NCBI GenBank assembly: GCA_964493325.1 | Contig: CAZBMD010000002.1 | Span: forward strand, 26,416-90,415 | Length of the DNA: 64,000 nucleotides | From: an uncultured Pseudomonadota bacterium | GTDB lineage: Bacteria; Babelota; Babeliae; Babelales; RVW-14 | Direction: 5' to 3' | Shown here: positions 1-39,047 of the stretch, one piece after another | Layout of the letters: every line of letters begins with the position of its first letter | Numbering within the stretch: the first letter of the stretch is position 1 | Translations under genes and position numbers: made by a program | Notes under the pieces: model-generated | What the model was told of the DNA's origin: nothing | The model's input: the letters and a program-made list of their open reading frames with translations, nothing else | Databases searched by the model: none

Positions 1-878
1 AGGTCTTTCGCATTGATCATTGGCTTGGTAAAGAGCTTGTTGGTAACATTGCGCTCATACGTTTTACCAATCGCGTACTTGAGCCTTTGTGGAATAACAA
101 GCATGTAGAGTCGGTTCAAATTGTTATGAATGAAGATAGAGGAATTGGAGCTCGCGGTTTGTATTATGATGCAGCAGGAATTGTGCGTGATATGGTCCAA
201 AGCCACATGTTGCAAATTATGGCATTGGTCGCTATGGAAGCTCCTGAGCATCTTACAGCTCATCATATTCGTGATGCCAAGGCACATGTTCTAAAAAAAG
301 TCAAAGTAGAGTCTGTTGTTCTTGGGCAATACGAAGGCTATCAAGACGAAAAAAATGTTAAGCAAGGATCGCAGACTCCAACGTTTGCGGCGCTTAAACT
401 TTCAATTAACAATAGGCGATGGCGTGGCGTTCCATTTTATGTAAAAACAGGTATTCAGCTTGCTAAGCGTTCTGCTGGTATTTATATCACTTTCAAGCGT
501 GTTGAATGCTTGCTTGATGCTTGCCCTTCTCAGCCAAATGGTTTGCGTATTAACATTCAGCCTGACGAAGGCTTTTTTTTACAATTAAACGCAAAAGTTC
601 CTGGAGTTGCCGACGAAGTGACCCCAGTGACGATGGCCTTTTCGCACAGTACCTTGTTTGGGCCAAATACACCTGAAGCTTATGAGTTGCTTCTCAGTGA
701 TGTGATCAAAAAAGATCATGCTGCATTTGTGCGACATGATGAAATTGAGGAGTCGTGGAAAATTGTTGAACAGATTAATCAATTTGATCAGACGATTTAT
801 CCCTATCTACAAAAAAGCAATGGACCTGACAAGCTAAAACAATTGAATACTGAGGAAGGATTTGTATGGCGCATTTAA
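1..878 (+). CDS. zwf: Glucose-6-phosphate 1-dehydrogenase, C-terminal ~290 aa (5' end outside window)
   Basis: Frame of ORF 87..878 is open back to base 3. Translation begins VFRIDHWLGKELV, a variant of the G6PD RIDHYLGKE active-site motif, then typical G6PD C-terminal domain sequence. Confidence 0.9.
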   Translation, partial: VFRIDHWLGKELVGNIALIRFTNRVLEPLWNNKHVESVQIVMNEDRGIGARGLYYDAAGIVRDMVQSHMLQIMALVAMEAPEHLTAHHIRDAKAHVLKKVKVESVVLGQYEGYQDEKNVKQGSQTPTFAALKLSINNRRWRGVPFYVKTGIQLAKRSAGIYITFKRVECLLDACPSQPNGLRINIQPDEGFFLQLNAKVPGVADEVTPVTMAFSHSTLFGPNTPEAYELLLSDVIKKDHAAFVRHDEIEESWKIVEQINQFDQTIYPYLQKSNGPDKLKQLNTEEGFVWRI

Positions 879-1780
879 ATATTGGACTCATTGGCTTGGG
901 GCGTATGGGTCTTTCTATTGCCTATCGTGCTGTACAAGCAGGGTTTATGGTAACCGGTTTTGATTTTAACAAACAAGCATGTGCAGAAGCTGAAAATCTT
1001 GGTGTGCGCATAGCAACAGATGTTGTTGCTGTTGCTGGGCAATCAGACATTATCTGGCTTATGGTTCCAGCAGGCTCCATTGTGGATGCAGTGCTGGATG
1101 AACTTTTTCCAGTTCTTGATCCTCAAAAAATAGTTATCGATGGTGGTAACAGCAATTTTAATGATTCGATAAGGCGGGCTAAAAAGTTATCCGAAAAGCA
1201 GTTTTCATTTCTTGATTGTGGGACATCTGGCGGTCTTCATGGCAGAGAGATTGGATTTTCTCTCATGGTTGGAGGCAATGAAGATGCATTCAACAAAGCG
1301 GAGCCTTTTTTTAAGGCAATTGCCGCGCCCAAAGGCTATGGATATATGGGGCGATCAGGTGCAGGGCATTACGTCAAAATGGTACACAATGGGATAGAGT
1401 ATGCGCTTTTGCAGGCCTATGCCGAAGGATTTCATTTGCTCAAAGAGGGTCAGTACAAGGAGCTTGACCTTGAAAAAATTTCTGGTGTCTGGGCCCATGG
1501 TTCGATTATTCGTTCGTGGATTGTTGATCTTGCTCAGGAGATTTTTGCAAAAGACCAAAAGTTTGATGATATCTCTGGGGCAATTGGGTCGCATGGTACG
1601 GGACAGTGGACGCTTGATGAGGCTGAACGCTGTAATATTCCGGTTGATATGATCAAAAAATCTCTAGAGATTCGTGAGTGGTCGCAAAGAAGTAGTGGCA
1701 ATTATGCAACTAAAATTGTTGCGATGCTTAGAAAAGCTTTTGGTGGGCACGCTGTTATTTCTTTGTCTAAAAAGAAATAA
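866..1780 (+). CDS. gnd: 6-phosphogluconate dehydrogenase, short (~300 aa) decarboxylating form
   Basis: Rossmann motif IGLIGLGRMG plus GGNSNF, CGTSGG and GAGHYVKMVHNGIEYA blocks typical of 6PGDH. Start overlaps the zwf stop by 13 nt. Confidence 0.8.
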   Translation: MAHLNIGLIGLGRMGLSIAYRAVQAGFMVTGFDFNKQACAEAENLGVRIATDVVAVAGQSDIIWLMVPAGSIVDAVLDELFPVLDPQKIVIDGGNSNFNDSIRRAKKLSEKQFSFLDCGTSGGLHGREIGFSLMVGGNEDAFNKAEPFFKAIAAPKGYGYMGRSGAGHYVKMVHNGIEYALLQAYAEGFHLLKEGQYKELDLEKISGVWAHGSIIRSWIVDLAQEIFAKDQKFDDISGAIGSHGTGQWTLDEAERCNIPVDMIKKSLEIREWSQRSSGNYATKIVAMLRKAFGGHAVISLSKKK

Positions 1781-1816
1781 CATAAAATTTTTTGAAAAAA
1801 TTAGAACAAATAAAAT

Positions 1817-1855
1817 CAAGCACGGTAGCAACAACTACCGTGCTTGAAATTTTTT
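1817..1855. terminator. Bidirectional rho-independent terminator between convergent genes
   Basis: Perfect 12-bp stem caagcacggtag / ctaccgtgcttg with 6-nt loop, followed by a T-run. Sits between the gnd stop and the stop of the minus-strand lectin gene. Confidence 0.8.
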
Positions 1856-2471
1856 ATTGCTTTGAGGTTCGATTTTTACGAGCTTTATGGTTAGTTTTTT
1901 CTACATTTTTGCTTCTGGTTTCAAGGATTTCCCTGTGTATGATTTCTTCTGTTTCTGCTCCAAGTAAACTGAGAAAGACAGCATTATCGGAGTGAAGGAA
2001 GCAGCCTCCAAAAAATGCTCGAATTTTTTCATCAACTGGAGCTGATAAACTAAATGGTGTTTGAGACTCCATACTGTCGCCGCTTCCAAAAGGACCGAAT
2101 TGTTTTCCTTTTCTTGTTTTAAAAACAACTTTTGCTAAATGCATTCCTCCATACCAGTATCCATAAACACCTGAGACTTTGACAATTGGATCGTTGGGAG
2201 AAACTCTGAATTCTGCATTGAAACTATTATCCAAAGGATTACAAGTTCCTAGCTTTTTTTTCCCATAGTAGACTTGTATACGATCAAAAATGCTTCCATG
2301 CCAAATTCTTATTCTTGTAATAGGCTTTGTTGCTTCATCTCGATGATCAAATGTCCCTGAAGAGTTTCCTCCAATCGGACCGAGCGTTGTGGCTTGACAG
2401 CTAAAGCCTCCTTTGATTAATGCTAGTCCGAATACCAGCATTGTGGCATATTGTATTTTATGAAAATTCAT
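1854..2471 (-). CDS. Secreted jacalin-like (beta-prism I) lectin domain protein
   Basis: Hydrophobic N-terminal signal (MNFHKIQYATMLVFGLALIKG). Blocks GGNSSGTF, ITRIRIWHGSIFDRIQVYYG, VSGVYGYWYGGMHLAKVVFKTRKGKQFGPFG and IRAFFGGC..LSLLGAE resemble jacalin-type lectin repeats. Basic C-terminal tail. Confidence 0.6.
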   Translation of the reverse strand: MNFHKIQYATMLVFGLALIKGGFSCQATTLGPIGGNSSGTFDHRDEATKPITRIRIWHGSIFDRIQVYYGKKKLGTCNPLDNSFNAEFRVSPNDPIVKVSGVYGYWYGGMHLAKVVFKTRKGKQFGPFGSGDSMESQTPFSLSAPVDEKIRAFFGGCFLHSDNAVFLSLLGAETEEIIHREILETRSKNVEKTNHKARKNRTSKQ

Positions 2472-2539
2472 ACGACTCCTTCATTTAGGGTTTAAAAAAT
2501 ATCTTTCTCTGTTTTAAATTAAGAAATTTTAAGTCGTCA

Positions 2540-3208
2540 ATGGTTAAGTTTGATTTGAGTAAAAAGGGGTTTCTAGTGAAATATTTTAAAAAAATTATTG
2601 ATATCAGTTGGCCTGTTTTGCCATCTATGACGGCTTACAAAAACAATCGGGTGGTTGAATTTAAGTCTACAAAAATATTCGAGCGCGATGCTGCGCGTGA
2701 GTCGGTTGTAACGCTTGGTGCTCACACCGGTACGCACGTTGATGCGCCGTCTCATTTTATGTGTGATGGCAGGACCATCGACCAACTAGACCTTGCCAGT
2801 TTGATTGGGTCTTGCGTGGTGATAGATATGACGCATAAAGAAGAAAAAATTACAGAAGAAGATCTTGCAACATATGATCTGCAAGAAGGTGGGATGATTC
2901 TTTTTAAAACAAAAAATAGTGCTTTTGCGCCTACCGATCTTTTTTGCCCGCAGTTTGTCTACCTTGATGCAACAGCTGCACAGTTTCTGGCATCAAAAAA
3001 GCTGCGCTGCGTGGGGATTGATTATCTGGGTGTTGAGCGCAATCAACCAGGGCACGAGACCCACACTATTTTATTTGAAGCTGGAGCCGTTATTATTGAA
3101 GGCCTGCGTTTGCAAGCTGTAGAACCTGGAGAGTATTTTTTATGCTGCCTACCGCTGGCGCTGGAAGGGCTTGAAGCAGCACCAGCACGTGCGGTACTGC
3201 TTCAATAA
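2540..3208 (+). CDS. Cyclase family protein / kynurenine formamidase-like
   Basis: Metal-binding signature GAHTGTHVDAPSHF (HxGTHxDxPxH) and ~220 aa length typical of the putative cyclase/arylformamidase family. Confidence 0.7.
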   Translation: MVKFDLSKKGFLVKYFKKIIDISWPVLPSMTAYKNNRVVEFKSTKIFERDAARESVVTLGAHTGTHVDAPSHFMCDGRTIDQLDLASLIGSCVVIDMTHKEEKITEEDLATYDLQEGGMILFKTKNSAFAPTDLFCPQFVYLDATAAQFLASKKLRCVGIDYLGVERNQPGHETHTILFEAGAVIIEGLRLQAVEPGEYFLCCLPLALEGLEAAPARAVLLQ

Positions 3209-4531
3209 TTACAACTTTTTATCTTGAGGCTCGTAGCCAAGTTGTTTCAGCTTGTCTCGAGTCTCGTCGGCAACAGCCCAATTTTTTTCTTTGCGGGCTT
3301 GCTCTCTTTTTTCAATCAATGCTTGAATTTCTGGTGTTATTTCAACCGTTGTTTCGGGCAAAGGTTGTAGCGTGAGTCCAAGAATGGACTGCAGCATCTT
3401 TTTGACAAGAGCTGCTGTTTGAGTATCCATTTTTTTAAGGTATTCAAACAAAAGTCCAAGAAACTTTGGTGTATTCAGGTCATCGCAAAGCGCTTCGAGC
3501 ATATCGCGTGTAACCTGGTAATCTGCATAATTATTTTCAGCGGCAGCGGGAACTGCTGCTAGAGCCGCAATAATTTTTTTGTAAGCAACTCCTGCTCCCT
3601 GAACATCCTGCAGATTGAAATCAATGGGAGTACGGTAGTGATGTTGCAGCAAAAAAAATCTAAAGACCATAGGGTCAATGGTTTGAAATGCATCGCGGAG
3701 CGTCAAAAAATTGCCCAACGATTTGGACATTTTTTCTTTGTTTACGTTGATGAAAGCGTTATGGAGCCAAAAGCGTGCAAATGTTGTATCGTGCAAACTT
3801 TCGGACTGCGCAATTTCATTTTCGTGGTGTGGAAAAATAAGGTCCATACCGCCACCGTGAATATCAAATGTTTCTCCCAGCAAGGCTTTTGCCATCACTG
3901 AACATTCAATATGCCAGCCTGGTCTGCCGTAGCCCCACGGTGATTCCCAAAATTTTCCAGCTTCGTTACCTTTCCACAATGCAAAATCGCCAGCATTTTT
4001 TTTGCGTGAGTCCACGTCAACGCGTGCTCCGGCTTCAAGCTCATCAAGTTTTCGGCCAGATAGCTTGCCGTAGCTGTTAAAAGATGAGATGTCAAAATAG
4101 ACGTCGCCATCAACAATGTAGGCGCAGTCTTTGGCAACAAGACCCTGGATAAATGAAATAATTTCTTTGATGTACTGGGTGACGCGCGGTTCGGCATCTG
4201 GGGTAACACAGTTCAGAAGAGCCATGTCTTGATGGTAAGCATCGATGTAGCGGGTAGCAACCTGTGTGTACGAATTGGGGTTGCCTTCGGCAATTGCCTT
4301 GTTGATGATTTTGTCATCAATATCGGTCAGATTGCGGATGTAATTAACTTTGTATCCTATTGATTTGAGCAGGCGTACAAGGACGTCAAAGTTAACGTAT
4401 GCTCGTCCGTGACCCAGGTGTGAGTAGTCATAGGGGGTAATGCCGCACACGTACATTGATACGGTGCCCGGTTTTTGAGGAGAGAATATTTCTTTTTTTT
4501 TGGTCAGTGAGTTGGTCAGGACGAGCTTCAT
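3209..4531 (-). CDS. cysS: Cysteine--tRNA ligase
   Basis: Class I aaRS motifs HLGHGRAY (HIGH) and KMSKSLGN (KMSKS). 440 aa with a CysRS-like sequence throughout. Confidence 0.95.
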   Translation of the reverse strand: MKLVLTNSLTKKKEIFSPQKPGTVSMYVCGITPYDYSHLGHGRAYVNFDVLVRLLKSIGYKVNYIRNLTDIDDKIINKAIAEGNPNSYTQVATRYIDAYHQDMALLNCVTPDAEPRVTQYIKEIISFIQGLVAKDCAYIVDGDVYFDISSFNSYGKLSGRKLDELEAGARVDVDSRKKNAGDFALWKGNEAGKFWESPWGYGRPGWHIECSVMAKALLGETFDIHGGGMDLIFPHHENEIAQSESLHDTTFARFWLHNAFINVNKEKMSKSLGNFLTLRDAFQTIDPMVFRFFLLQHHYRTPIDFNLQDVQGAGVAYKKIIAALAAVPAAAENNYADYQVTRDMLEALCDDLNTPKFLGLLFEYLKKMDTQTAALVKKMLQSILGLTLQPLPETTVEITPEIQALIEKREQARKEKNWAVADETRDKLKQLGYEPQDKKL

Positions 4532-4536
4532 AATTA

Positions 4537-5016
4537 TTATTTTGTAAAGGTGGTTTGAATTTTTGTCTTCAGTTCATCTTTTGAAACAAAACCTTCAATA
4601 CGGTCTTCTTGGCTTGTTTCTTTGCCATCTTCAAAAAAGAGGAATGCTGGGATACCTCTGATGCCGTATTGTTTTGCAATATCTCCAGCTTCATCAACAT
4701 CAATCATGGCAAACTTTGTTGATGCCAAGTCTGCATCATGAGCAAGTTCTTCATAAATTGGTTGCATGTCCTTACAAGCCCCACACCATTCAGCATGAAA
4801 CTTTACAATGACCGGTGCTTTTTCCTGAAGGACTGCTTCTTCAAATTGAGTATCATTTTTGATGTGTATGACGGATGAAGAGTTTTGATGTTGTGCTGTT
4901 ACATGTTTTTTACTGCCATGGTCGTGTCCACAGGGACACTTGTGGCAGCCCCATTTGCATGAACTAAGAAATACAAGGCTGATGACACTTACGCACTTTA
5001 AAAATTTTGTAATCAT
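4537..5016 (-). CDS. Thioredoxin-fold lipoprotein with Cys/His-rich N-terminal segment
   Basis: Internal ATG at 5016 gives MITKFLKCVSVISLVFLSSC (lipobox LSSC). This is followed by KWGCHKCPCGHDHGSKKH and a thioredoxin domain with a WCGACK active site. Confidence 0.75.
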   Translation of the reverse strand: MITKFLKCVSVISLVFLSSCKWGCHKCPCGHDHGSKKHVTAQHQNSSSVIHIKNDTQFEEAVLQEKAPVIVKFHAEWCGACKDMQPIYEELAHDADLASTKFAMIDVDEAGDIAKQYGIRGIPAFLFFEDGKETSQEDRIEGFVSKDELKTKIQTTFTK

Positions 5017-5130
5017 ATTGTTTTCCTGAAAAAAAGGAGGATTAAGATTCTTTAGACGATTCTTTTTATAATATCTGGAAAACAAAAGTAAGTATAGATA
5101 CCCTCAAGGAGAGGAGCATTTCTTTGCTTT

Positions 5131-5490
5131 ATGGTAAAGAAGAATGGGGAAATTATGAGAAAATATTTTTTTTTAAAGGCACTTTTGCCGTGTGCAATTT
5201 TTTTTATTTTTAGCACTATTTTTCAACACAACAAGGTTATCAAAATCAATTATGAAAAAAGACGGAATGAGCTCAAGCTTGGGCAGCTGAAAAAAGAATA
5301 TAACCGACTGATGGTTTATCATACGACGATGTGTGATTTTCAGATAACGCAAAGCATTGCTCAGCACCGGTGCGGTATGAAGCTTGTGTCGCTTGCTCAG
5401 ATTGAGACTCTAACAGATGGAGGTGGGTTTGATTTTTACACTGCGTCATCAAGTGATGCGATGTTTTTGATTAATCAGCGGTCAGCATAG
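5131..5490 (+). CDS. Putative cell-division protein FtsL-like (small bitopic membrane protein)
   Basis: One hydrophobic helix followed by a charged coiled-coil-like stretch (EKRRNELKLGQLKKEYNRL), located directly upstream of ftsI. ATG 5155 is an alternative start. Assignment rests mainly on position. Confidence 0.4.
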   Translation: MVKKNGEIMRKYFFLKALLPCAIFFIFSTIFQHNKVIKINYEKRRNELKLGQLKKEYNRLMVYHTTMCDFQITQSIAQHRCGMKLVSLAQIETLTDGGGFDFYTASSSDAMFLINQRSA

Positions 5491-5498
5491 GTGGGGTT

Positions 5499-7145
5499 GT
5501 GATTTATAAAGATTATCGAGTTCGGCTCTTTATCGTTTTTTGTGCGTTTGGGTTTGTGTACCTAGTTCTTGTGGCTCGGCTCTTTTTTATTCAAATTTAT
5601 TACAAAGATTTTTTTGTAAACCTTGCTCATGGACAACATCATGTTGCCGTTTCCATTAGTCCAGCACGTGGCGCTATTTATGATCGGTTCAAAGATAGGC
5701 CGCTTACGTTTAACAATGAGACATTGTCTGCATTCATTCTGCCTCATGAACTGAGTGAAAAAGAAAAGACATGCGCTTATCTCAAGCGTTCTTATCCAGA
5801 GGTTTTTGATCGTATGATCAAATTTCCTCAGAGGCATTTTTTATGGCTCGATCGGCATCTGCCCGAAGAGCGACTTACTTATTTACGAGGTAAAAAACTT
5901 AAAGATATTAATTTTATTGCTGAGCCTCAGCGCTATTATCCTGTCGAATCGCTTGCTCATGTTCTTGGCTTTACCGATATTGATAACAATGGCATAGCAG
6001 GTATTGAGCAAGAATTTAATAAACATCTGAGTGGCGCTTCGTCGTTTCTTGAGATGGAGCGGGATGCTCGTTCTGGTTGTTTTTATTTTGAAAAAAATGT
6101 GAACAAACAGGGTGAGCTGGGTTTGCCCGTGGTGCTCACCATCGATAGTGCCTTGCAGTCTTTTGCATATGAAGAGCTCAAAGAAACGGTTCTACGGCAT
6201 CGAGCCAAAACGGGGTCGGTTCTGGTCATGGATCCAGACTCTGGTGAAATTTTGACGATGGCTAACTATCCAAGCTTTAATCCGTCAGAAAAAAAGACAA
6301 ATCTTAATCTAGAGGTAACAAAAAATAATGTGGTGAGTGAGTGTTACGAGCTAGGATCTGTTTTTAAAATTTTTACCGCTCTTGCTGCGCTGGAAGAAGA
6401 GTTGGTAACTCCTGATGATTTAATTGACTGCGAGGGTAAGGTTACTTTTATTGATGGTATTCGTGTAGAAAACTGGAAGAGTGTTAATGTTGTACCTTTC
6501 AGTGATGTGGTCAGATATTCGAGCAACGTTGGTATTGCTAAAGTTGCCAAGCTTCTTGGCCCGCGATTGCACCATTATTTACGTCTGCTGGGGTTTGGGA
6601 AAAAGACTGGGATTCGATTTCCTGGTGAGAGAGATGGATTTGTTAATCCTCCCGAACGGTGGAGTAAGCCTTCGCTCATTGTGCTTGCCTTTGGCTACGA
6701 AATTATGGCTTCTCTTCTTCAGCTAGGCTCTGCTTTTTCTATCATTGCCAACGGTGGTTACTCAGTAAAACCGTCGCTGGTTATCGATCCTCCTCAAGAA
6801 CCTTGGCAAAAAACAAAGTTGCTAAGCGACAGAACTATCGAGCAAATTAAAGATATTATGGAAAAAATTGGCGAGCGTTACAAGATTTCTGGCTATCGGG
6901 TGATGGGCAAAACGGGAACAGCACGATGTGTCAAAGATGGCGTCTATTCAACCAAAGCTCATTTGTACACGTTTGCCGGCATTGTAGAAAAAGGTGATTA
7001 TAAACGGGTGATTGTGACTTTTATCAAAGAGCCTGAACGTGCTCACATGTGGGCATCTGAAGTCACGGCACCTCTGTTTCGGCGTGTTGCTGAGCGCATG
7101 GTTATTCTTGATACAACGCGGCGAGGGAAAAAGCTGAAGCCGTGA
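5499..7145 (+). CDS. ftsI: Class B penicillin-binding protein / peptidoglycan D,D-transpeptidase FtsI
   Basis: N-terminal TM anchor. Transpeptidase motifs SVFK (SxxK), SSN and KTGT in the correct order. GTG start. Confidence 0.9.
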   Translation: MIYKDYRVRLFIVFCAFGFVYLVLVARLFFIQIYYKDFFVNLAHGQHHVAVSISPARGAIYDRFKDRPLTFNNETLSAFILPHELSEKEKTCAYLKRSYPEVFDRMIKFPQRHFLWLDRHLPEERLTYLRGKKLKDINFIAEPQRYYPVESLAHVLGFTDIDNNGIAGIEQEFNKHLSGASSFLEMERDARSGCFYFEKNVNKQGELGLPVVLTIDSALQSFAYEELKETVLRHRAKTGSVLVMDPDSGEILTMANYPSFNPSEKKTNLNLEVTKNNVVSECYELGSVFKIFTALAALEEELVTPDDLIDCEGKVTFIDGIRVENWKSVNVVPFSDVVRYSSNVGIAKVAKLLGPRLHHYLRLLGFGKKTGIRFPGERDGFVNPPERWSKPSLIVLAFGYEIMASLLQLGSAFSIIANGGYSVKPSLVIDPPQEPWQKTKLLSDRTIEQIKDIMEKIGERYKISGYRVMGKTGTARCVKDGVYSTKAHLYTFAGIVEKGDYKRVIVTFIKEPERAHMWASEVTAPLFRRVAERMVILDTTRRGKKLKP

Positions 7146-16040: not shown

Positions 16041-16368
16041 TGATCTGATAGGATCGATATTTAATTGGTTGTTTTTCTGGTAATCGCTATCAGTACTGGA
16101 CTTTTGCGAAAAAAGCATAGTTAAACTGAAGATTGAATCATGTATGTCATTTACACAAACTTTTTTGAGAGCTTATGCAAAGAGCAAATTAAACTATAAA
16201 CCCTAAGTCTGTCAATGCACTTAAAGATTTGTAGGTTTTTCTCATTTTTTTTAAAAAAAATGGTATGTGATTTACAAAGGAGCTACACTGGGCGCTGTTG
16301 AAAATTGGCACAAAAGACAAAATAAGGCCTTAATAAAAGCTTTATTAGATTTAAGGGAGCTTCCATTT

Positions 16369-17100
16369 ATGGAGACACAGCTACAGGACAAACGATTATT
16401 TATTCTTGAGGGTAATATTGGCGCGGGCAAGTCGACGTTGCTCAAAATCCTTAAGGAAACGCTTAATATCGATATCATTGATGAACCTATTGATAAATGG
16501 CAAAACGTTGATGGTCAAGAAAATCTCCTTGATTTGTTTTACAAAGACACTAAGCGTTGGGCGTATACTTTTCAGTCGTATGCTTTTATTTCACGCGTTC
16601 AAGCCATTTTTGATAGTAGTAAACGGCCTGGGAGCTCACCTACTCAGATTCTTGAGCGTTCGGTTTTTTCAGATAGATTTTGTTTTGCAAAAAATGCCTA
16701 TGAAGCCGGTCTAATGAGTGATTTGGAGTGGCAAATTTATAAAGATTGGTTTGAGTGGTTAGTGGGTTCATACATGCCTAAGCCTCAGGGGTTCATTTAT
16801 CTCAGAACAACTCCTCACGTTAGTCACGCGCGCCTTACCAAGCGAAACAGGCATGAAGAAAGCAGCGTTGCCCTTGACTACATGGAGGCATTACACAAAA
16901 AACACGAGGATTGGCTCATTCATAAGGTTGAGCAGCCAGCTTATATCGCGCATATTCCTGTGCTTGCGCTGGAGTGTGATCATGATTTTGAAAAAGATCG
17001 TAACGAATTGGATCGCCACGTTGCGTTGATTAAGAGTTTTATTGAAACGGGAGTTTCTCCGCTTTCAGAAGTAGCGTCTTTAAAGCAGGTTGCTATTTAG
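16369..17100 (+). CDS. Deoxynucleoside kinase (dNK/dCK/dGK family)
   Basis: P-loop EGNIGAGKSTLL close to the N-terminus when ATG 16369 (METQLQDKRLFILEG) is used. ERS motif (LERSVFSD) and Arg-rich lid (RLTKRNRHEE). The track ORF starts at GTG 16267. Confidence 0.8.
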   Translation: METQLQDKRLFILEGNIGAGKSTLLKILKETLNIDIIDEPIDKWQNVDGQENLLDLFYKDTKRWAYTFQSYAFISRVQAIFDSSKRPGSSPTQILERSVFSDRFCFAKNAYEAGLMSDLEWQIYKDWFEWLVGSYMPKPQGFIYLRTTPHVSHARLTKRNRHEESSVALDYMEALHKKHEDWLIHKVEQPAYIAHIPVLALECDHDFEKDRNELDRHVALIKSFIETGVSPLSEVASLKQVAI

Positions 17101-33025: not shown

Positions 33026-35317
33026 ATGAAGAGAGTAGTTCTTTTTTGTTGTCTTATGATGAGCCATGGAGTATTTGCTATGAATCGTTCAGTTCTGCCA
33101 CCAGCGCCAGAGCGAGTGGAACATGTCAAAGAGATTTTAGTGAAATTCAATCACGAAGTTGTAGATCTTTTTAATGGTCTTTCTGATGTTGAGCAAGCAT
33201 TTGTGGCGATGGTTTATCAAGCAAGTATTCCTTGGTACTCATTTGCGACCGATCAAATTCATCGATCTAGCCAAGACATCATTGATATTCTTAATGATAT
33301 TTTGAAGTATCAAAGTGAAATTAAAGATGCATGGAATAAGGAGTGGTTGAACCTTGAAGGTGTAGACGAAATCGATGATTTTCTTGCTCAAATTAGGCAA
33401 CTACTTATTTATGTTTTTTCTAATAACGGACTGTATTTTCTCAAAGAGCACGCCGATTCTAAGCGCACACCTGCTCGCCTAGGCTTATCACTGATAACGC
33501 CTAATAATCTTAAAGCTGTTTTGCGTTGTGTGCATCATAAAGGGTGTAGTGATATGATATTCATAGCGCAGCACACGGGTCCAGATATAGATGATATTTG
33601 GAATGACTTCGTGAAATTTTTTTTTGATGGGACATTTGAATCGACGTTGACGACAGATGGCAGCATTGCAAACAGTGCGGTTAATATCTATGGGCCAAAA
33701 GGTTTTCCTGCTGGTGATCATCGTAATTTTACAGATGAGGATTATAAACAATTTTTAGCGACGAATGTTCGGCATAACCCTTTGATTCATTATTACTCTG
33801 TTGATTACAACGAAGAAAGTGGTAATCGCGAGATATTTGCTGAGTCATTCCATGAGCGTTATAAAGAAAGTATCAAGATTTCAATAGGGTACCTTTCAAT
33901 GGCTCTGCGTCTTGCAGATGATCACCGTGAATATTTTGATGAGCACATGGTTGCCTGTCTTGGGTATCTGATTGATTTTTTAAAGACGGGAGACGAGAGG
34001 TGCTACGATGAATATTCCATCGCTTGGCTTAAAAGTAAGTCTCGAGTTGGCATTGAGATGGGATGGACCGAGGTTTATTACGATCCTATGGGTAATGTTG
34101 GATTTCCTCAAGCCGAAGTTACTATCGCCGATCCAGAAGCAGGGCTTGGTGCGATTATTGGGATGCTCCCTTCGATAGAGGAGCAATTACCCCTTCCGCC
34201 AGAATTTAAGCGAGATGTGCTTGGCAGTCAGGCTGCTTTTCCTAATGCGGAAGTGCGTCGACAAGTTTTTGGTATAGGCGGTCTTGGGCCTCTATCATCT
34301 ACAGCTGCTTATTGTTTGCCCAACAAAAGTGAGATTCGTTCTCTTTATGGAACTCGCCAAGTGATTTATCCTCCTGGTAAAAATATTCAGCGGCAGGTAA
34401 ATAATGATTTGACTAACAAGCTATTCTTTTTGCCCGAGCGCGCTGGGTGGTTTGCAAAGCATGATCCAGAGGCTTCAATCTTGCAAAAGTTGTGGTATGT
34501 GCATGTTGTACTGCATGAGACGCTTGGTCACGGGAGTGGACGTGTTGATAAACATACATTTGTTCCAGAAGATGATTTAACAGTTAATGGGATAACCTAT
34601 GAGGTTGGCGATCAGATACAGATAAATGAAAAAAATTGTTCACACTTCTTACGAGGCTATGGCAGTGCATTGGAAGAAATGCGTGCAGAAATCATAGCCT
34701 TGTACACATCTCTGGTGCATCTTGACCAGATCAAAGCTTGCAAACTTTTGGGTGATTGGGGTGACAAACTGAGCGATAAAGAACTTCAAGAGTGGCTGAT
34801 TTTTGACATGGCAAATACCGCTCTTCATCGCATGGTTCAGCAGAGTGATACAGCAACAGAAATTACCGGAGCTCATGCGCTCGCAAATTGTACTATTACC
34901 AATTATCTAGTGGACTGTGGCGGTATCGCCTATGAAGTGGCGCCGGTTGATATTAATGGTGTAGTGTATGATGTCGTGGGTATTAAGATTGTTGATCTTG
35001 ATCAGTCTATAGCTTCTGTTACAAAGTTAATGCAAGAAGTACAGCGTATTAAATCAACGGCAGATGGTGTTGCCGTTGAAAAACTGATCAACAGATTTGG
35101 TAAACCTCTTAATAGTAAGTTTATGAATATTTTAAAGGGCCACCAAAAAACTATTTCTGGAGACCTCAAGGCTACGGTGGTGATTCCTCCGCATTTAGAG
35201 CCCTTGTTAGGCATTGATGGTAACTGGACAGTGAAATCGTCGTGGCCAGAAGATTGTATTGATCTTTTAAATCGATGGACACTCCCAGATCCTAATATTC
35301 TTGATGAATTTGAATAA
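33026..35317 (+). CDS. Secreted M49 (dipeptidyl-peptidase III-like) zinc metallopeptidase
   Basis: Signal peptide MKRVVLFCCLMMSHGVFA. HETLGH (the HExxGH variant typical of M49) plus a downstream EEMRAE (EExRAE) second zinc motif. Confidence 0.7.
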   Translation: MKRVVLFCCLMMSHGVFAMNRSVLPPAPERVEHVKEILVKFNHEVVDLFNGLSDVEQAFVAMVYQASIPWYSFATDQIHRSSQDIIDILNDILKYQSEIKDAWNKEWLNLEGVDEIDDFLAQIRQLLIYVFSNNGLYFLKEHADSKRTPARLGLSLITPNNLKAVLRCVHHKGCSDMIFIAQHTGPDIDDIWNDFVKFFFDGTFESTLTTDGSIANSAVNIYGPKGFPAGDHRNFTDEDYKQFLATNVRHNPLIHYYSVDYNEESGNREIFAESFHERYKESIKISIGYLSMALRLADDHREYFDEHMVACLGYLIDFLKTGDERCYDEYSIAWLKSKSRVGIEMGWTEVYYDPMGNVGFPQAEVTIADPEAGLGAIIGMLPSIEEQLPLPPEFKRDVLGSQAAFPNAEVRRQVFGIGGLGPLSSTAAYCLPNKSEIRSLYGTRQVIYPPGKNIQRQVNNDLTNKLFFLPERAGWFAKHDPEASILQKLWYVHVVLHETLGHGSGRVDKHTFVPEDDLTVNGITYEVGDQIQINEKNCSHFLRGYGSALEEMRAEIIALYTSLVHLDQIKACKLLGDWGDKLSDKELQEWLIFDMANTALHRMVQQSDTATEITGAHALANCTITNYLVDCGGIAYEVAPVDINGVVYDVVGIKIVDLDQSIASVTKLMQEVQRIKSTADGVAVEKLINRFGKPLNSKFMNILKGHQKTISGDLKATVVIPPHLEPLLGIDGNWTVKSSWPEDCIDLLNRWTLPDPNILDEFE

Positions 35318-35991: not shown

Positions 35992-36849
35992 ATGCTATCT
36001 CAGCAAAAAACATTAAAAAAAGAACTTGTATTTAAGGGTATTGGAGTTCATTCTGGCGCTCCATCAACCATTCGTCTTAAACCAGCACCGTTCGATTCGG
36101 GCATTGTTTTCGTAAAAAATCAGAGCGCCGACCATATTATGCGAGTGGGAGATGTTATCCCCGAGGTTGCGATGCATGCAACGGTCATAAAATCAGGCTT
36201 CTGGGCGGTAAGTACGGTTGAACATCTCATGGCGGCTCTTTCTTTACTTGGTGTTGATAACGTAGAAATTGAGGTAGACGGCACTGAAATTCCCATTCTT
36301 GATGGAAGTGCGTTACCCTTTGTTCAAGGGATTTACGAAGTTGGTTTTGAATTACAAAGAGCCGAAAGTGCTTGGCTAACGCCTAAAGAGTTACTGACTT
36401 TTCAGGATAATCATGGGCGCCTGCTTGTTATTGAGCCTGCGCCGCAAGGCGAGCCTTCGTTGTTTATCGATTATAACGCTGGTTTTGTACACCCGCTCAA
36501 CGGGAGTTCGATTTTTAGTGGGCAGGTAACGCAAGATTTTTTCATTAATGAGATTGCTCCTGCGCGGACGTTTGGCAATCTTGAACAGTTTCCGTATCTG
36601 CGAGCACATGGACTTGCGCAAGGTTCATCACTGGGGAATACTGTAGTGATTGGAGATGGAGAGCTTTTAAATGATATGCGGCTTCCTAATGAGTGTGTTC
36701 GTCACAAATTTCTCGATTTATTGGGGGATTTGAGCCTACTTGGTAAGCGCCTTGCAGGACGAATTACTGCCCAAAAAACGGGTCATCAATTCAATAGGCT
36801 TGTAATTGAGCATTTTATTAACAATCCACAGCTCTGGGAACTGCGATAG
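35992..36849 (+). CDS. lpxC: UDP-3-O-acyl-N-acetylglucosamine deacetylase
   Basis: N-terminus QKTLKKELVFKGIGVHSGAPSTIRLKPA, TVEHLMAAL, and C-terminal HKFLDLLGDL..GH motifs characteristic of LpxC. Confidence 0.9.
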   Translation: MLSQQKTLKKELVFKGIGVHSGAPSTIRLKPAPFDSGIVFVKNQSADHIMRVGDVIPEVAMHATVIKSGFWAVSTVEHLMAALSLLGVDNVEIEVDGTEIPILDGSALPFVQGIYEVGFELQRAESAWLTPKELLTFQDNHGRLLVIEPAPQGEPSLFIDYNAGFVHPLNGSSIFSGQVTQDFFINEIAPARTFGNLEQFPYLRAHGLAQGSSLGNTVVIGDGELLNDMRLPNECVRHKFLDLLGDLSLLGKRLAGRITAQKTGHQFNRLVIEHFINNPQLWELR

Positions 36850-36883
36850 TGCCTTAGGCTTGTCGTATCCAGGCGTTTTATAG

Positions 36884-36912
36884 AAAAAAGGACCCGATAG
36901 GGCCCTTTTTTT
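36884..36912. terminator. Weak bidirectional terminator between lpxC and the EamA gene
   Basis: aaaaaaggacccgatagggcccttttttt: a short imperfect GC stem flanked by an A-run and a T-run between convergent genes. Confidence 0.4.
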
Positions 36913-36916
36913 AATT

Positions 36917-37816
36917 TTAAGCTTGCTTTGTCGTACGAAGCTCATCTTTATAAAAAATAAATAGTCCAATGCTGACGCACAACAGGCAGACAAAATAGTG
37001 CCATGAGACGTTGCCTCCGGTCAGTATCCACTCATAAAAAGTTGCAAATAGTGGGCAAAGAAAGCCTGCAAATGACAAAAAGGTGATTGAATAGCGAGTC
37101 ATCAAAAAGCCGAACAGATTGTAAAAAACGATATTTGCGGCAAAAATAAGTGCCAAAATCCAGAAGAAAAATCCCCAAATATCACTTACAGGAGGAACTA
37201 GCCCTTCGATTATCAGCGAAGTAATCCAGCTGAGAATTCCTCCGATGAACATGGTTATGCCGTTAATAAGAGCTAGCGGATAGCCCTTGTCGATCAGTTT
37301 TTTAATCAAAAACCAGGCGTATGCCGCTGATACCACTGCGGTGAGCAGTGCACATTCAGGCAATGAAATCGACCAGAGCTGCCCTGCGCTTTGTTCGGCT
37401 TGGCTTTGCGCTATTAGCACGGGAAATAGACCGGCAACGCCAAGCGCAATGCCTGCAATTTTCTGTATACTCAGTTTTTGTTTGAGTAAAAAATAAGCAA
37501 GAATTGCTGAAATAAATGGTGTGAGCGAATAGATCATGGTTGTCTTGATGGCTGAAACGTACGTGAGGCCCCAAAATTCCAGTACAAACGCAAAATAGAT
37601 GTAAAAAAGAGATGCGTTGAAAAACGAGCATAGATCTTTTTTACTAATTTTTGAAAAAATGCGATGATCTTTCCACCATTGAAAAGCGAGCAGAAAAAGG
37701 CCTGCAAGGGTCATGCGAAAACCTATAAAAAAACAGGGGCTTGCTGTTGCCACGCCTTGTTTTGCAAACCAAAAAGTGGACGCTAAGACTGCATATAAAA
37801 GTACAACAAGAAACAT
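36917..37816 (-). CDS. EamA/DMT superfamily transporter (10 TM)
   Basis: Start set to ATG 37816 (MFLVVLLYAVLASTFWFAKQG). The track ORF extends 66 codons further and would overlap the upstream gene. Two EamA-like 5-TM halves. Confidence 0.8.
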   Translation of the reverse strand: MFLVVLLYAVLASTFWFAKQGVATASPCFFIGFRMTLAGLFLLAFQWWKDHRIFSKISKKDLCSFFNASLFYIYFAFVLEFWGLTYVSAIKTTMIYSLTPFISAILAYFLLKQKLSIQKIAGIALGVAGLFPVLIAQSQAEQSAGQLWSISLPECALLTAVVSAAYAWFLIKKLIDKGYPLALINGITMFIGGILSWITSLIIEGLVPPVSDIWGFFFWILALIFAANIVFYNLFGFLMTRYSITFLSFAGFLCPLFATFYEWILTGGNVSWHYFVCLLCVSIGLFIFYKDELRTTKQA

Positions 37817-37826
37817 AGTGCTCCAT

Positions 37827-38603
37827 TTATAAGTTAGGCTGGTTATTAAAATTAAATTGTACGCTATTTCCAGCTTTTGCTCCAAAAAATTGTGCAGCTG
37901 AGCCGAGATTAATGGCGATTTCGAGCGTGTTGTTGCTTCCCTTATAGGCAAGTAATTGACCTTCTGGGACTGCGCTGAAAGTATTAGTAATAGGTAACGT
38001 TTCTGATATGTCATTGATTACGACTGTTGCTGTTTTATGCTTTGCATCGGGCGTATCTGGGAATTGAATATTAGTTTTGATATTTCCAAAGCTATCTATA
38101 AATGAAACGATTGTTTGGTTATCAAGTTCTGGTAAGATTTCTAACTGATTGATTTCAATGAGCTGCAAGAAATCTCGTTTGCCGTGGGCAAACGCTGCCG
38201 CAGCTGGCGAGAATAGATCCCGTCCATGGAAAGTATTGGAAGCAATCTTAAACTTTGTTTCATCAATTAGAAAGGCTGATGAAAGAGGATTGCTTTTGAG
38301 TAAAGCATGAAATATCCCATTGTTGGGCCCAAAAAAATGTTGATTGTTAGCGTGTAGATAAATGGGTTGGCGTTCACTGCCAACGCCTGGGTCGACTATG
38401 CAAATAAAAACGGTTTCTTTTGGAAAGAATGGGTGCACTTTATCGATGATAAATGCAGCGCTCACAAGATTGAATTTATCGACAGTATGATCGATGTCGA
38501 TAATAGTACATTCTGGAGCCTCTTTCAGTAAGACTCCTCGAATAGATGCAACTGCAAAATCATTGCCAAAATCGGTTAATAATCCAAAAATTTGTTTCTT
38601 CAT
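37827..38603 (-). CDS. DUF62 family SAM hydroxide adenosyltransferase / SAM-dependent halogenase family protein
   Basis: Family motifs LLTDFGNDFAV, VDPGVGSERQPI, FHGRDLFSPAAAAFA and IDSFGNIKTNI. 258 aa. Confidence 0.8.
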   Translation of the reverse strand: MKKQIFGLLTDFGNDFAVASIRGVLLKEAPECTIIDIDHTVDKFNLVSAAFIIDKVHPFFPKETVFICIVDPGVGSERQPIYLHANNQHFFGPNNGIFHALLKSNPLSSAFLIDETKFKIASNTFHGRDLFSPAAAAFAHGKRDFLQLIEINQLEILPELDNQTIVSFIDSFGNIKTNIQFPDTPDAKHKTATVVINDISETLPITNTFSAVPEGQLLAYKGSNNTLEIAINLGSAAQFFGAKAGNSVQFNFNNQPNL

Positions 38604-38995
38604 GGTTTTAGACTTTCTGATTTTAAAATCAAAATAACATAACGAACGGATGGCATCGTTGATAATTACATCTAAGCAGAAATATTAACGGCATAATTGA
38701 TAGTTTTGCTAATGGCTTTATTAAGCTGTTTAGGTAATTACCAAAAATTAAACTAAAAAATGAATAGTGAAGATAAAAAAATATGGCTTACGCCATCATA
38801 GAGATTGATGCTGAGCGCATTATGATAGAGAAGTGTACAGAGGAGATCTGGCGTTGTTTTGCTCCAAGGTGAGATACGGGTTTAAGCGCCGTGTCGGTCA
38901 TGGGGATAGCTCCTTGAAATTTTGAAAATAATTTTACATCACATGTGGAGTACTTTATCTTGTTTTAAAAAAATGTGCAAATGGTTCAAAACGAC

Positions 38996-39025
38996 AAACG
39001 AGCGGACTTTTAAGTCCGCTCGTTT
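38996..39025 (-). terminator. Rho-independent terminator after rseP
   Basis: Near-perfect long palindrome aaacgagcggactt / aagtccgctcgttt, 23 nt downstream of the rseP stop. On the minus strand the stem is followed by gtcgtttt. Confidence 0.75.
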
Positions 39026-39047
39026 AGTATAAAAATATGCTAAAAAA

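Follow-up and report, generated by a model that had tools for sequence, protein, structure and literature searches.

Our subject is a small group of genes on the minus strand of a 64,000-nucleotide stretch of contig CAZBMD010000002.1 (assembly GCA_964493325.1), which we refer to throughout, at its full length, as the window. At its centre lies a DUF62 gene, which is followed almost at once by a gene for a membrane carrier of the EamA family and preceded by a short open reading frame rich in methionine (Met) codons. We think that these three parts, a Met-rich leader small open reading frame (sORF), a DUF62 hydrolase of S-adenosylmethionine (SAM) and an EamA carrier, may make up one unit characteristic of the Dependentiae (TM6/Babeliales). 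The features are these:

38931..38941, minus strand: putative promoter, an extended -10 element TGATGTAAAAT, about 30 nt upstream of the leader start
38788..38901, minus strand: leader sORF of 37 codons plus stop, encoding MTDTALKPVSHLGAKQRQISSVHFSIIMRSASISMMA, with a GGAG Shine–Dalgarno sequence
38783..38796, minus strand: leader hairpin AUGGC-GUAA-GCCAU, with a U7 run next to it at 38775..38781
38604..38782, minus strand: spacer of 179 nt from the leader hairpin to the DUF62 start
37827..38603, minus strand: DUF62 gene, 258 aa, with Pfam SAM_HAT_N and SAM_HAT_C domains and a match to PH0463 that includes the catalytic triad
36917..37816, minus strand: gene for an EamA/DMT (DME-type) carrier of 299 aa with ten transmembrane segments (10-TM) and two Pfam EamA stretches
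36884..36911, minus strand: terminator hairpin preceded by an A-run and followed by a U-run, common to the convergent lpxC

A first-pass annotation, made from the letters of the window, had picked out the pair of larger genes, and its description of them was accurate: the DUF62 reading frame is there with all four of the motifs it quoted, and the carrier does begin at 37816, 10 nt from the DUF62 stop, and has ten hydrophobic segments. The mechanical reading frame of the carrier is longer (36917..38014), its upstream extension overlapping DUF62 in another frame, and the true start is the ATG at 37816, which has a GGAG 5 nt before it. The hairpin behind the EamA stop folds at -16.5 kcal/mol (z -4.15), a value that none of 200 shuffles reached, and on the other side the unit is bounded by the rseP terminator at 38995..39026 (-22.6 kcal/mol). 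Within the 10-nt gap between the two genes we found no structure and no internal terminator. Because the gap is so short and carries its GGAG, because terminators flank the pair and because none lies inside it, DUF62 and EamA very probably form one transcription unit and are co-transcribed, as the annotation had also proposed. As for its promoter, the extended -10 at 38931..38941 aligns with a perfect TGATATAAT in L142, the window copy itself failing the strict test, and promoter-like sites occur in other relatives as well (TGATATAAT again in L082 and TGATATTAT in L081). A sigma-70-like site was also sought on the minus strand of the 179-nt spacer, and none was found there. The spacer does hold an 8-bp hairpin, UUUUGAUU-UUAA-AAUCAGAA, at 38615..38634 (minus strand), whose 3' arm overlaps the weak DUF62 Shine–Dalgarno sequence (GAAAG, 38613..38617). 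It is identical in L142, an identity that says little in so close a relative, and it could be a translational control element or merely reflect recent shared ancestry.

The enzyme is the firmest part of the story. Its product matches Pfam SAM_HAT_N at 1.3e-43 (148.7 bits, cut-off 26.3) and SAM_HAT_C at 4.3e-19 (69.1 bits, cut-off 25.5), and the best match in the Protein Data Bank (PDB) is PH0463 of Pyrococcus horikoshii (4e-34), in the alignment with which D71, R78 and H126 fall on D68, R75 and H127. These three residues are invariant across 44 homologues. In the family as a whole the Asp-Arg-His triad activates water and is reported only from hydrolytic DUF62 proteins, being absent from the fluorinase and chlorinase (PMC10491745), and since the window protein carries it, the protein is of the hydrolase type and not a halogenase. 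Indeed, a halogenase was considered and set aside: the fluorinase model TIGR04507 reaches 44.5 bits against a cut-off of 400 and covers residues 15–79 only, and the triad is present. The protein thus almost certainly belongs to the SAM hydroxide adenosyltransferase/SAM hydrolase family, which forms adenosine, and the SAM-cleaving enzyme of the first-pass annotation is borne out by the alignment of its triad. The best NCBIfam models are (R)-SAM hydrolase equivalogs, and both score below cut-off (NF058624 at 152.2 against 350 bits and NF053629 at 134.7 against 470); these are narrow models, and judged by such scores the window protein looks like a family member, not an equivalog. Characterised relatives are informative about what such an enzyme does, since it is the inactive (R)-epimer that is selectively cleaved by the SAM hydrolases of Salinispora tropica, Sulfolobus acidocaldarius and Haloferax volcanii. 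In knock-outs the share of that epimer in the cells climbs from 8% to 17% (Sulfolobus) or, starting below detection, reaches about 5% (Haloferax; bioRxiv 10.1101/2025.08.29.672840). Because of this selectivity, salvage or clean-up of the SAM pool is favoured over bulk SAM catabolism. The proposal that the enzyme splits SAM into methionine and adenosine appears, from homology, well founded at the level of the family, but the same cannot be said of bulk catabolism, given homologues that prefer the (R)-epimer.

What the first-pass annotation did not mention, and what has become of particular interest to us, is the leader. Alignment of the DNA upstream of DUF62 in related loci brings out a nearly invariant TATGATGGCGTAAGCCATAT, which is the end of a small reading frame, and an sORF of 30–46 codons lies upstream of DUF62 in all 11 of the Dependentiae loci examined. 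The statistics refer to the ten loci with upstream DNA, the eleventh (L150, also P0013) having been fetched afterwards. The sORFs of these ten have 31–46 codons and an ATG start, eight of the ten checked have a GGAG-type Shine–Dalgarno sequence (that of L150 looks leaderless), and the sORF frame alone is open in all ten loci, with stops per frame of 0/27/10/21/10/32. Methionine takes up 38 of the 120 codons that make up the last 12 positions (32%) against 1 of 237 elsewhere (0.4%; Fisher p = 3e-19), compared with a frequency of 2.3% in four proteins of the window, and each of the 38 ATG triplets within the final 36 nt lies in frame, those elsewhere being in frame once and out of frame six times. 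The tail is kept as F-S-x-x-M-R-x-S-S..M-M-A and the N-terminal two thirds are unconserved. The hairpin is built into the very end of this reading frame: its 5' arm consists of the last Met codon and the GC of an Ala codon, and the UAA stop sits inside its GNRA loop. A terminator scan flagged it as terminator-like, at -6.1 kcal/mol. Variants exist, for example a GCAA loop (still GNRA) with the stop two codons later in L081, and a 6-bp stem, AUGGCC..GGCCAU, in L141 and L140.

The leader is specific to its place. The exact 14-mer of the hairpin occurs only upstream of DUF62, and a covariance model of the element, R1, finds only its 10 training copies in 477 kb of Dependentiae-like DNA; within those 477 kb, unlinked EamA genes have no copy upstream and the Patescibacteria-type loci L143, L144 and L145 have no copy at all. 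The locus L150 served as an out-of-sample test: R1 matches at the expected place (26.2 bits, E 0.01), the sORF there encodes MKVLYSTIQLLFSFCFELFHISLFMSPMMA and ends in MMA before its stop, that stop being a UGA in the loop of GGCC-UGAG-GGCC, and a promoter, TTGACA-17-TATCTT, ends 7 nt before the sORF ATG. Because it is kept where EamA is missing (L081, L140), the leader belongs to DUF62. We consider it, on balance, probably translated and regulatory, and we found no Met-codon leader peptide described in the literature searched. Three other leads came to nothing. A 17-mer of the leader hairpin has four matches in viral contigs, which are due to chance, none having a Shine–Dalgarno sequence, a U-run or a DUF62 gene; an Rfam SAM-II match (19.8 bits, E 2.3) is likewise chance, on the wrong strand and over the rseP terminator; and the idea that the sORF is the precursor of a ribosomally synthesised and post-translationally modified peptide was dropped, the literature match that had prompted it being to DUF6229, a different family, with no modifying enzymes nearby.

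How faithful the pair is to itself depends on which of its members one starts from. The DUF62-anchored set comprises 11 loci (the window, L142, L082, L001, L138, L139, L141, L150, L081, L140 and L143), and in eight of them an EamA orthologue lies directly 3' of DUF62 on the same strand, at distances from a 10-nt overlap to an 80-nt gap: the window, L142 (where DUF62 is 83% identical), L082, L001 (a Babeliales metagenome-assembled genome), L138, L139, L141 and L150. No EamA follows DUF62 in L081, L140 and L143. The first of these shares the synteny of the window (rseP-DUF62-lpxC-rplM-M49) with 90 nt from DUF62 to lpxC and EamA absent (L081 5284–6133 against window 36849–38603), and since the order is otherwise the same, the carrier would seem to have been lost from, or added to, this exact rseP-DUF62-lpxC site recently. 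In L143 the setting is that of DUF62 with a glycosyltransferase, as also in the Patescibacteria locus L144. The contexts of the pair number at least five, namely rseP/lpxC in the window, rny-ymdB-lptFG/gmk in L113 and L138 (and in L141, with mutS inserted) and DNA ligase/tetR in L139, together with L082, where the pair lies amid unknown genes, and L001, where it stands beside a DEAD-box helicase. To judge from gene order, then, the pair recurs and appears to move as a unit between contexts in the Dependentiae. From the side of the carrier we had 54 metagenome loci, 40 of them with enough upstream sequence, and DUF62 is present in three of the 40 (L113, L118 and L123); in a neighbour-joining tree carriers with and without a linked DUF62 are intermingled, down to the deepest branches. 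The adjacency, whose conservation in relatives the first-pass annotation proposed to test, is therefore found in 8 of 11 loci when DUF62 is the starting point, but in only 3 of 40 when EamA is.

Outside the phylum the pair was not seen. A scan of genome contigs with the single protein found no relative, and an exact look-up of the window protein gave no contig. Our out-group consists of 79 DUF62 loci from other phyla (L002–L080), among the matches listed in a profile scan of genome contigs, which include at least one Dependentiae locus besides; among the 79, an EamA-like reading frame near DUF62 occurs in none of the 79. Nor is EamA a neighbour of DUF62 in the Patescibacteria loci L144 and L145, and it is missing from the Pfam families counted at least twice among the 142 genes that directly adjoin DUF62 in other phyla. 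The commonest neighbours outside the Dependentiae (n=142, among the matches listed) are class I SAM-dependent methyltransferases (7), DnaN (6) and 5-enolpyruvylshikimate-3-phosphate synthase (5).

Some of these loci have features of their own. In L150 (1801–4769) the leader-DUF62 cassette has an EamA gene on either side, the two being paralogues that share 38% identity; the one downstream of the cassette is orthologous to the window carrier (41.5% identity), and the one upstream is 31% identical to it. The carrier of L082 is divergent, at 32% identity to that of the window, about like the upstream EamA of L150. In L143 (2853–7395) and L144 (3501–7267), of which one is an unassigned contig and the other, L144, belongs to an Azambacteria genome, DUF62 is accompanied by Glycos_transf_1, an unknown gene of about 255 aa and glycosyltransferase-like genes, the latter including Glyco_transf_9 in L143 and a weak Glyco_transf_92 in L144. 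In L145 (3501–5186; Paceibacterota, Patescibacteria) the gene after DUF62, on the same strand, encodes a deoxynucleoside kinase (PF01712), which would fit phosphorylation of the adenosine derived from SAM.

The carrier is a member of the DMT superfamily of the DME type with ten transmembrane segments, as its two EamA domains, ten helices and DMT fold make plain. Pfam EamA matches the 299-aa product in two stretches (6.3e-32, 111 bits), ten hydrophobic segments can be counted, and an AlphaFold model (pLDDT, the predicted local distance difference test, 85.3; pTM, the predicted template-modelling score, 0.80) has the DMT fold. A fold search with this model returned the LicB choline importer, YddG, the CMP-sialic acid transporter, the triose-phosphate translocator and SLC35B1 at TM-scores of 0.70–0.75 and 14–17% identity, the PDB entries superposed in that range being 7paf, 5i20 and 6oh3, and a sequence search of the PDB with the EamA profile gave no match even at E<=1. 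More than 120 homologues of the carrier, at 49–93% identity, include proteins named Babeliales, Dependentiae or TM6, and the EamA profile A2 gathers 627 clusters (at the 50% identity level) at E<=1e-30. The carrier is, in other words, a widespread Dependentiae gene in a large orthologous group specific to the Dependentiae, to which DUF62 is an optional add-on. A Rickettsia sam/EamA gene has been reported on integrative conjugative elements (PMC5615194), and a plasmid search for that sequence returned only generic EamA genes at about 25% identity. We found no report of a SAM carrier in the Dependentiae in the literature searched.

Such a carrier would have a clear use. To our knowledge all three known bacterial SAM importers, those of Rickettsia, Chlamydia and Amoebophilus, are 10-TM proteins of the DME type, that of Amoebophilus reportedly having been described by Haferkamp et al. 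in 2013. Import of SAM through 10-TM DME carriers is documented for Rickettsia and Chlamydia (PMC3104491, PMC5615194). A table of clusters of orthologous groups in the supplement to PMC4378268 gives 0 for MetK, SAH hydrolase (SahH; SAH is S-adenosylhomocysteine), Pfs, LuxS, MetE and MetH in both Babela massiliensis and TM6SC1, and it lists two DMT permeases in the former and four in the latter; MetK is also 0 there in Amoebophilus, Chlamydia species and Rickettsia bellii. Because these two sequenced Dependentiae lack MetK, SahH, Pfs and LuxS, their SAM would have to come from the host. A tblastn search with E. coli MetK and Pfs sequences matched neither the window nor any of the 1.26 Mb of loci fetched, a result that is uninformative about the rest of the genome.

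Putting these pieces together, we propose tentatively, and as something short of probable, that the locus is a Met-linked operon which would free methionine, and adenosine with it, from host SAM brought in by the co-transcribed EamA carrier. By analogy with its characterised homologues, DUF62 would hydrolyse SAM, or at least its (R)-sulfonium epimer, to L-methionine and adenosine; the dead (R)-epimer is one that an organism living on imported SAM could not dilute by fresh synthesis. The carrier, for its part, would bring in SAM, possibly in exchange for SAH, and so feed the enzyme. SAM suggests itself as the cargo because it is the sole known substrate of the enzyme, because the phylum seems unable to make it, because EamA is the habitual operon partner of DUF62 and because the carrier has the architecture of the known importers; on these grounds we regard transport of SAM by this carrier as a serious possibility, if one somewhat less than even. 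The leader could then make expression of the unit depend on how much charged Met-tRNA is available, or on methionine or SAM. Attenuation by a leader peptide comes to mind because codons for a single amino acid are clustered where the leader ends and a hairpin and a U-run follow, and in such a scheme the progress of the ribosome over the Met codons would set how much transcription or translation reaches DUF62 and EamA. A ribosome on the tandem Met codons or on the stop would cover the hairpin and block its formation; one stalled at an earlier Met, 8–11 codons upstream, would leave it free. The polarity can be argued both ways, and, taking the trp, his, phe and leu leaders as a model, we would favour induction by a shortage of methionine.

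A good deal weighs against this proposal. Among the 40 EamA orthologue loci, 37 are without DUF62 and leader, and in 27 of the EamA-anchored loci (L084–L137) it is lptFG that lies directly upstream, in a conserved rny-ymdB-lptFG-EamA-gmk block (in L138, for example, 57–6322 holds RNase Y, YmdB, an LptF/LptG-like permease and EamA, with guanylate kinase on the opposite strand). Curated models for the carrier are generic or describe exporters and score far below cut-off (2A78 at 55.7 against 230 bits; YedA and YddG), and it is about 25% identical to arbitrary EamA proteins. The first-pass annotation had leaned on the carrier being of the same family as RP076 of Rickettsia and CTL843 of Chlamydia, and this argument fails, for those two proteins share only about 20% identity and no phylogenetic relationship, and SAM carriers are unrecognisable by similarity (PMC3104491). 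The leader hairpin is weak at its -6.1 kcal/mol, a U-run follows it directly in only three of ten loci (the window, L142 and L141), with a second hairpin and U-run 40–55 nt downstream in L081, L113, L138 and L139, no antiterminator alternative appeared in constrained folds with the sORF end blocked, and the canonical stem shows no base-pair covariation, only shifted or extended variants. Searched with a relaxed threshold, Rfam gave nothing like the leader and no SAM riboswitch. In addition, clearance of (R)-SAM is itself disputed as the physiological role of DUF62, some other function having been suggested in 2025 (PMC12120602), and the absence of MetK is known from two other Dependentiae, Babela massiliensis and TM6SC1.

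Several other explanations therefore deserve a hearing, and the one that concerns the leader carries the most weight among them. The sORF and hairpin might not regulate DUF62 at all, and be instead a gene for a small protein with its own terminator, or they might form an arrest element of the TnaC/SpeFL kind, sensing a small molecule and not Met-tRNA. The semi-conserved residues other than Met in F-S-x-x-M-R-x-S-S..MMA and a geometry unlike that of the classical four-region attenuator speak for such a view, and tnaC-tnaA-tnaB and speFL-speF-potE come to mind as precedents for the order leader, enzyme, transporter. Such ideas sit badly with an element that precedes DUF62 at all 11 loci and has no other copy in 477 kb of Dependentiae DNA, and with an N-terminal two thirds that is unconserved and a Met enrichment confined to the last 12 codons. 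Taken together we think these ideas rather less likely than regulation by Met codons, and an arrest peptide sensing methionine or SAM is nevertheless a live alternative. The carrier, meanwhile, could transport methionine or some other amino acid or metabolite, enzyme and carrier then being two routes to methionine under one leader. The leader does point to methionine and not to SAM specifically, the nearest curated models are amino-acid or carboxylate transporters, the carrier mostly occurs without DUF62, and with two to four DMT permeases in Babela and TM6SC1 another of them could carry SAM. We hold this to be unlikely all the same: the leader accompanies DUF62 even at loci that lack EamA (L081, L140), and so was not built for the carrier, we know of no methionine importer in the DME family, and the known SAM importers are of that very type.

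Direction of transport is a further question, for the carrier might export a product or a toxic relative of SAM, be it adenosine, SAH, methylthioadenosine or (R)-SAM. Export is what many DME members do, the weak matches of this carrier include YedA and YddG, eamA is filed under multidrug exporters in the Chromulinavorax paper, and an organism with neither SahH nor Pfs must shed its SAH. CTL843, however, exports SAH in return for SAM (PMC3104491), so that this explanation largely merges with the import of SAM that we prefer, and export of methionine or adenosine makes little sense for an auxotroph; as a separate account we find it improbable. Much the same low standing goes to the view that there is no functional coupling, and that a leader-DUF62 cassette was simply inserted upstream of a housekeeping carrier, whose transcription unit it now rides. 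The cassette does lie exactly between lptFG and EamA in L113, L138 and L141, at a site that is empty in 27 other loci, and DUF62 occurs alone in L081 and L140. Mere insertion has difficulty with at least five unrelated contexts, in which EamA is 31–93% identical to that of the window and the gaps are short or the genes overlap, and with the rarity of chance adjacency, EamA not being among the recurrent families in the 142 neighbours from other phyla. We are thus left with the Met-linked import and cleavage of SAM as our preferred account. The first-pass annotation, which saw in the pair a candidate module for scavenging SAM, is supported in part: the hydrolase, the likely operon and the conserved adjacency have held up, and the Met-codon leader and the genes missing from Babela massiliensis and TM6SC1 count in its favour, but the family argument has gone, the carrier is mostly found free of DUF62, and the supporting link to a deoxynucleoside kinase has come apart: that gene is present (16267..17100; PF01712, 1.8e-60), but it lies 20 kb away and is unlinked to the locus.

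The window has a G+C content of about 40% and comes from a member of the host-dependent phylum Dependentiae; close homologues of DUF62 as well as of the carrier bear the names Babeliales, Dependentiae or TM6. Its remainder can be dealt with briefly. The neighbours of the pair are rseP, rpsL-rpsG-fusA, lpxC, rplM and an M49-like peptidase. This last (33026–35317, plus strand; 763 aa) has an N-terminal hydrophobic, signal-like segment and a weak match to Peptidase_M49 (dipeptidyl-peptidase III) at 1.6e-19, has no NCBIfam match and is conserved beside rplM in L081. Further away, a protein with a Jacalin-like lectin domain (1854–2471, minus strand), which is unexpected for a reduced intracellular bacterium, adjoins a putative cyclase (2540–3208, plus strand; PF04199).

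Within the limits of the literature searched, the DUF62-EamA operon, its restriction to the Dependentiae and the Met-rich leader with a stop-in-loop hairpin are undescribed, the protein families themselves being known. Should all of it prove right, this would be the first leader switch built on Met codons and the first regulatory evidence for Met salvage by DUF62, and the EamA group would be the SAM/SAH carrier of the Dependentiae; we consider that full combination doubtful. A leader, a DUF62 gene and a carrier in bacteria apparently unable to make SAM turn the disputed role of DUF62 into a testable hypothesis, namely Met-controlled salvage of imported SAM, and they nominate a candidate for the SAM importer that the Dependentiae need, from a group that is well defined by its 627 clusters. 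If true, the EamA group would be one more case of a DME-type protein recruited independently for cofactor parasitism. The regulatory design, in which a GNRA loop holds the stop codon and the stem contains tandem Met codons, is unusual in its own right.

How, then, does the unit compare with what is known? Set against the characterised DUF62 hydrolases (PH0463 and those of Salinispora, Sulfolobus and Haloferax), the window protein has the same two Pfam domains, the same triad, about 35% full-length identity and no halogenase features, although it scores below the NCBIfam equivalog cut-offs. Its surroundings differ: neither the Met-codon leader nor the EamA operon was seen with the DUF62 genes of other phyla (79 loci, among the matches listed), and the SAM hydrolase gene of Sulfolobus, for example, sits with a triphosphate tunnel metalloenzyme along with an adenylyltransferase for nicotinamide mononucleotide (bioRxiv 10.1101/2025.08.29.672840). 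The carrier resembles RP076 (Sam/EamA), CTL843 (SAMHT) and the Amoebophilus carrier in its 10-TM architecture with two EamA domains and, to judge from Babela massiliensis and TM6SC1, also in its setting, a host-dependent lineage without MetK, SahH and Pfs; none of those carriers has been reported beside a SAM hydrolase.

The leader has two kinds of relatives. Like the attenuators trpL, hisL, pheL, leuL and thrL, it is a short 5' reading frame in which codons for one amino acid crowd together near the end, and a hairpin comes before the structural genes, with a U-run directly after it in the window, L142 and L141 (for pheL, see PMC3082878). It differs from them in that the codons are those of methionine, that the last of them lies inside the hairpin together with the stop, that constrained folds gave no antiterminator and that what would be controlled is a hydrolase and a carrier, not a biosynthetic pathway. 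In tnaC-tnaA-tnaB and speFL-speF-potE, on the other hand, a leader sORF with a conserved C-terminal end next to its stop precedes an enzyme that acts on a metabolite and then the transporter of that metabolite, and the TnaC and SpeFL leaders respond to free tryptophan or ornithine within the ribosome and block Rho. The TnaC arrest peptide has been described (PMC8429421). The unit of the Dependentiae shares with these systems the order of leader, enzyme and transporter, a likeness of gene order and of the conserved tail, and its spacer is T-rich.

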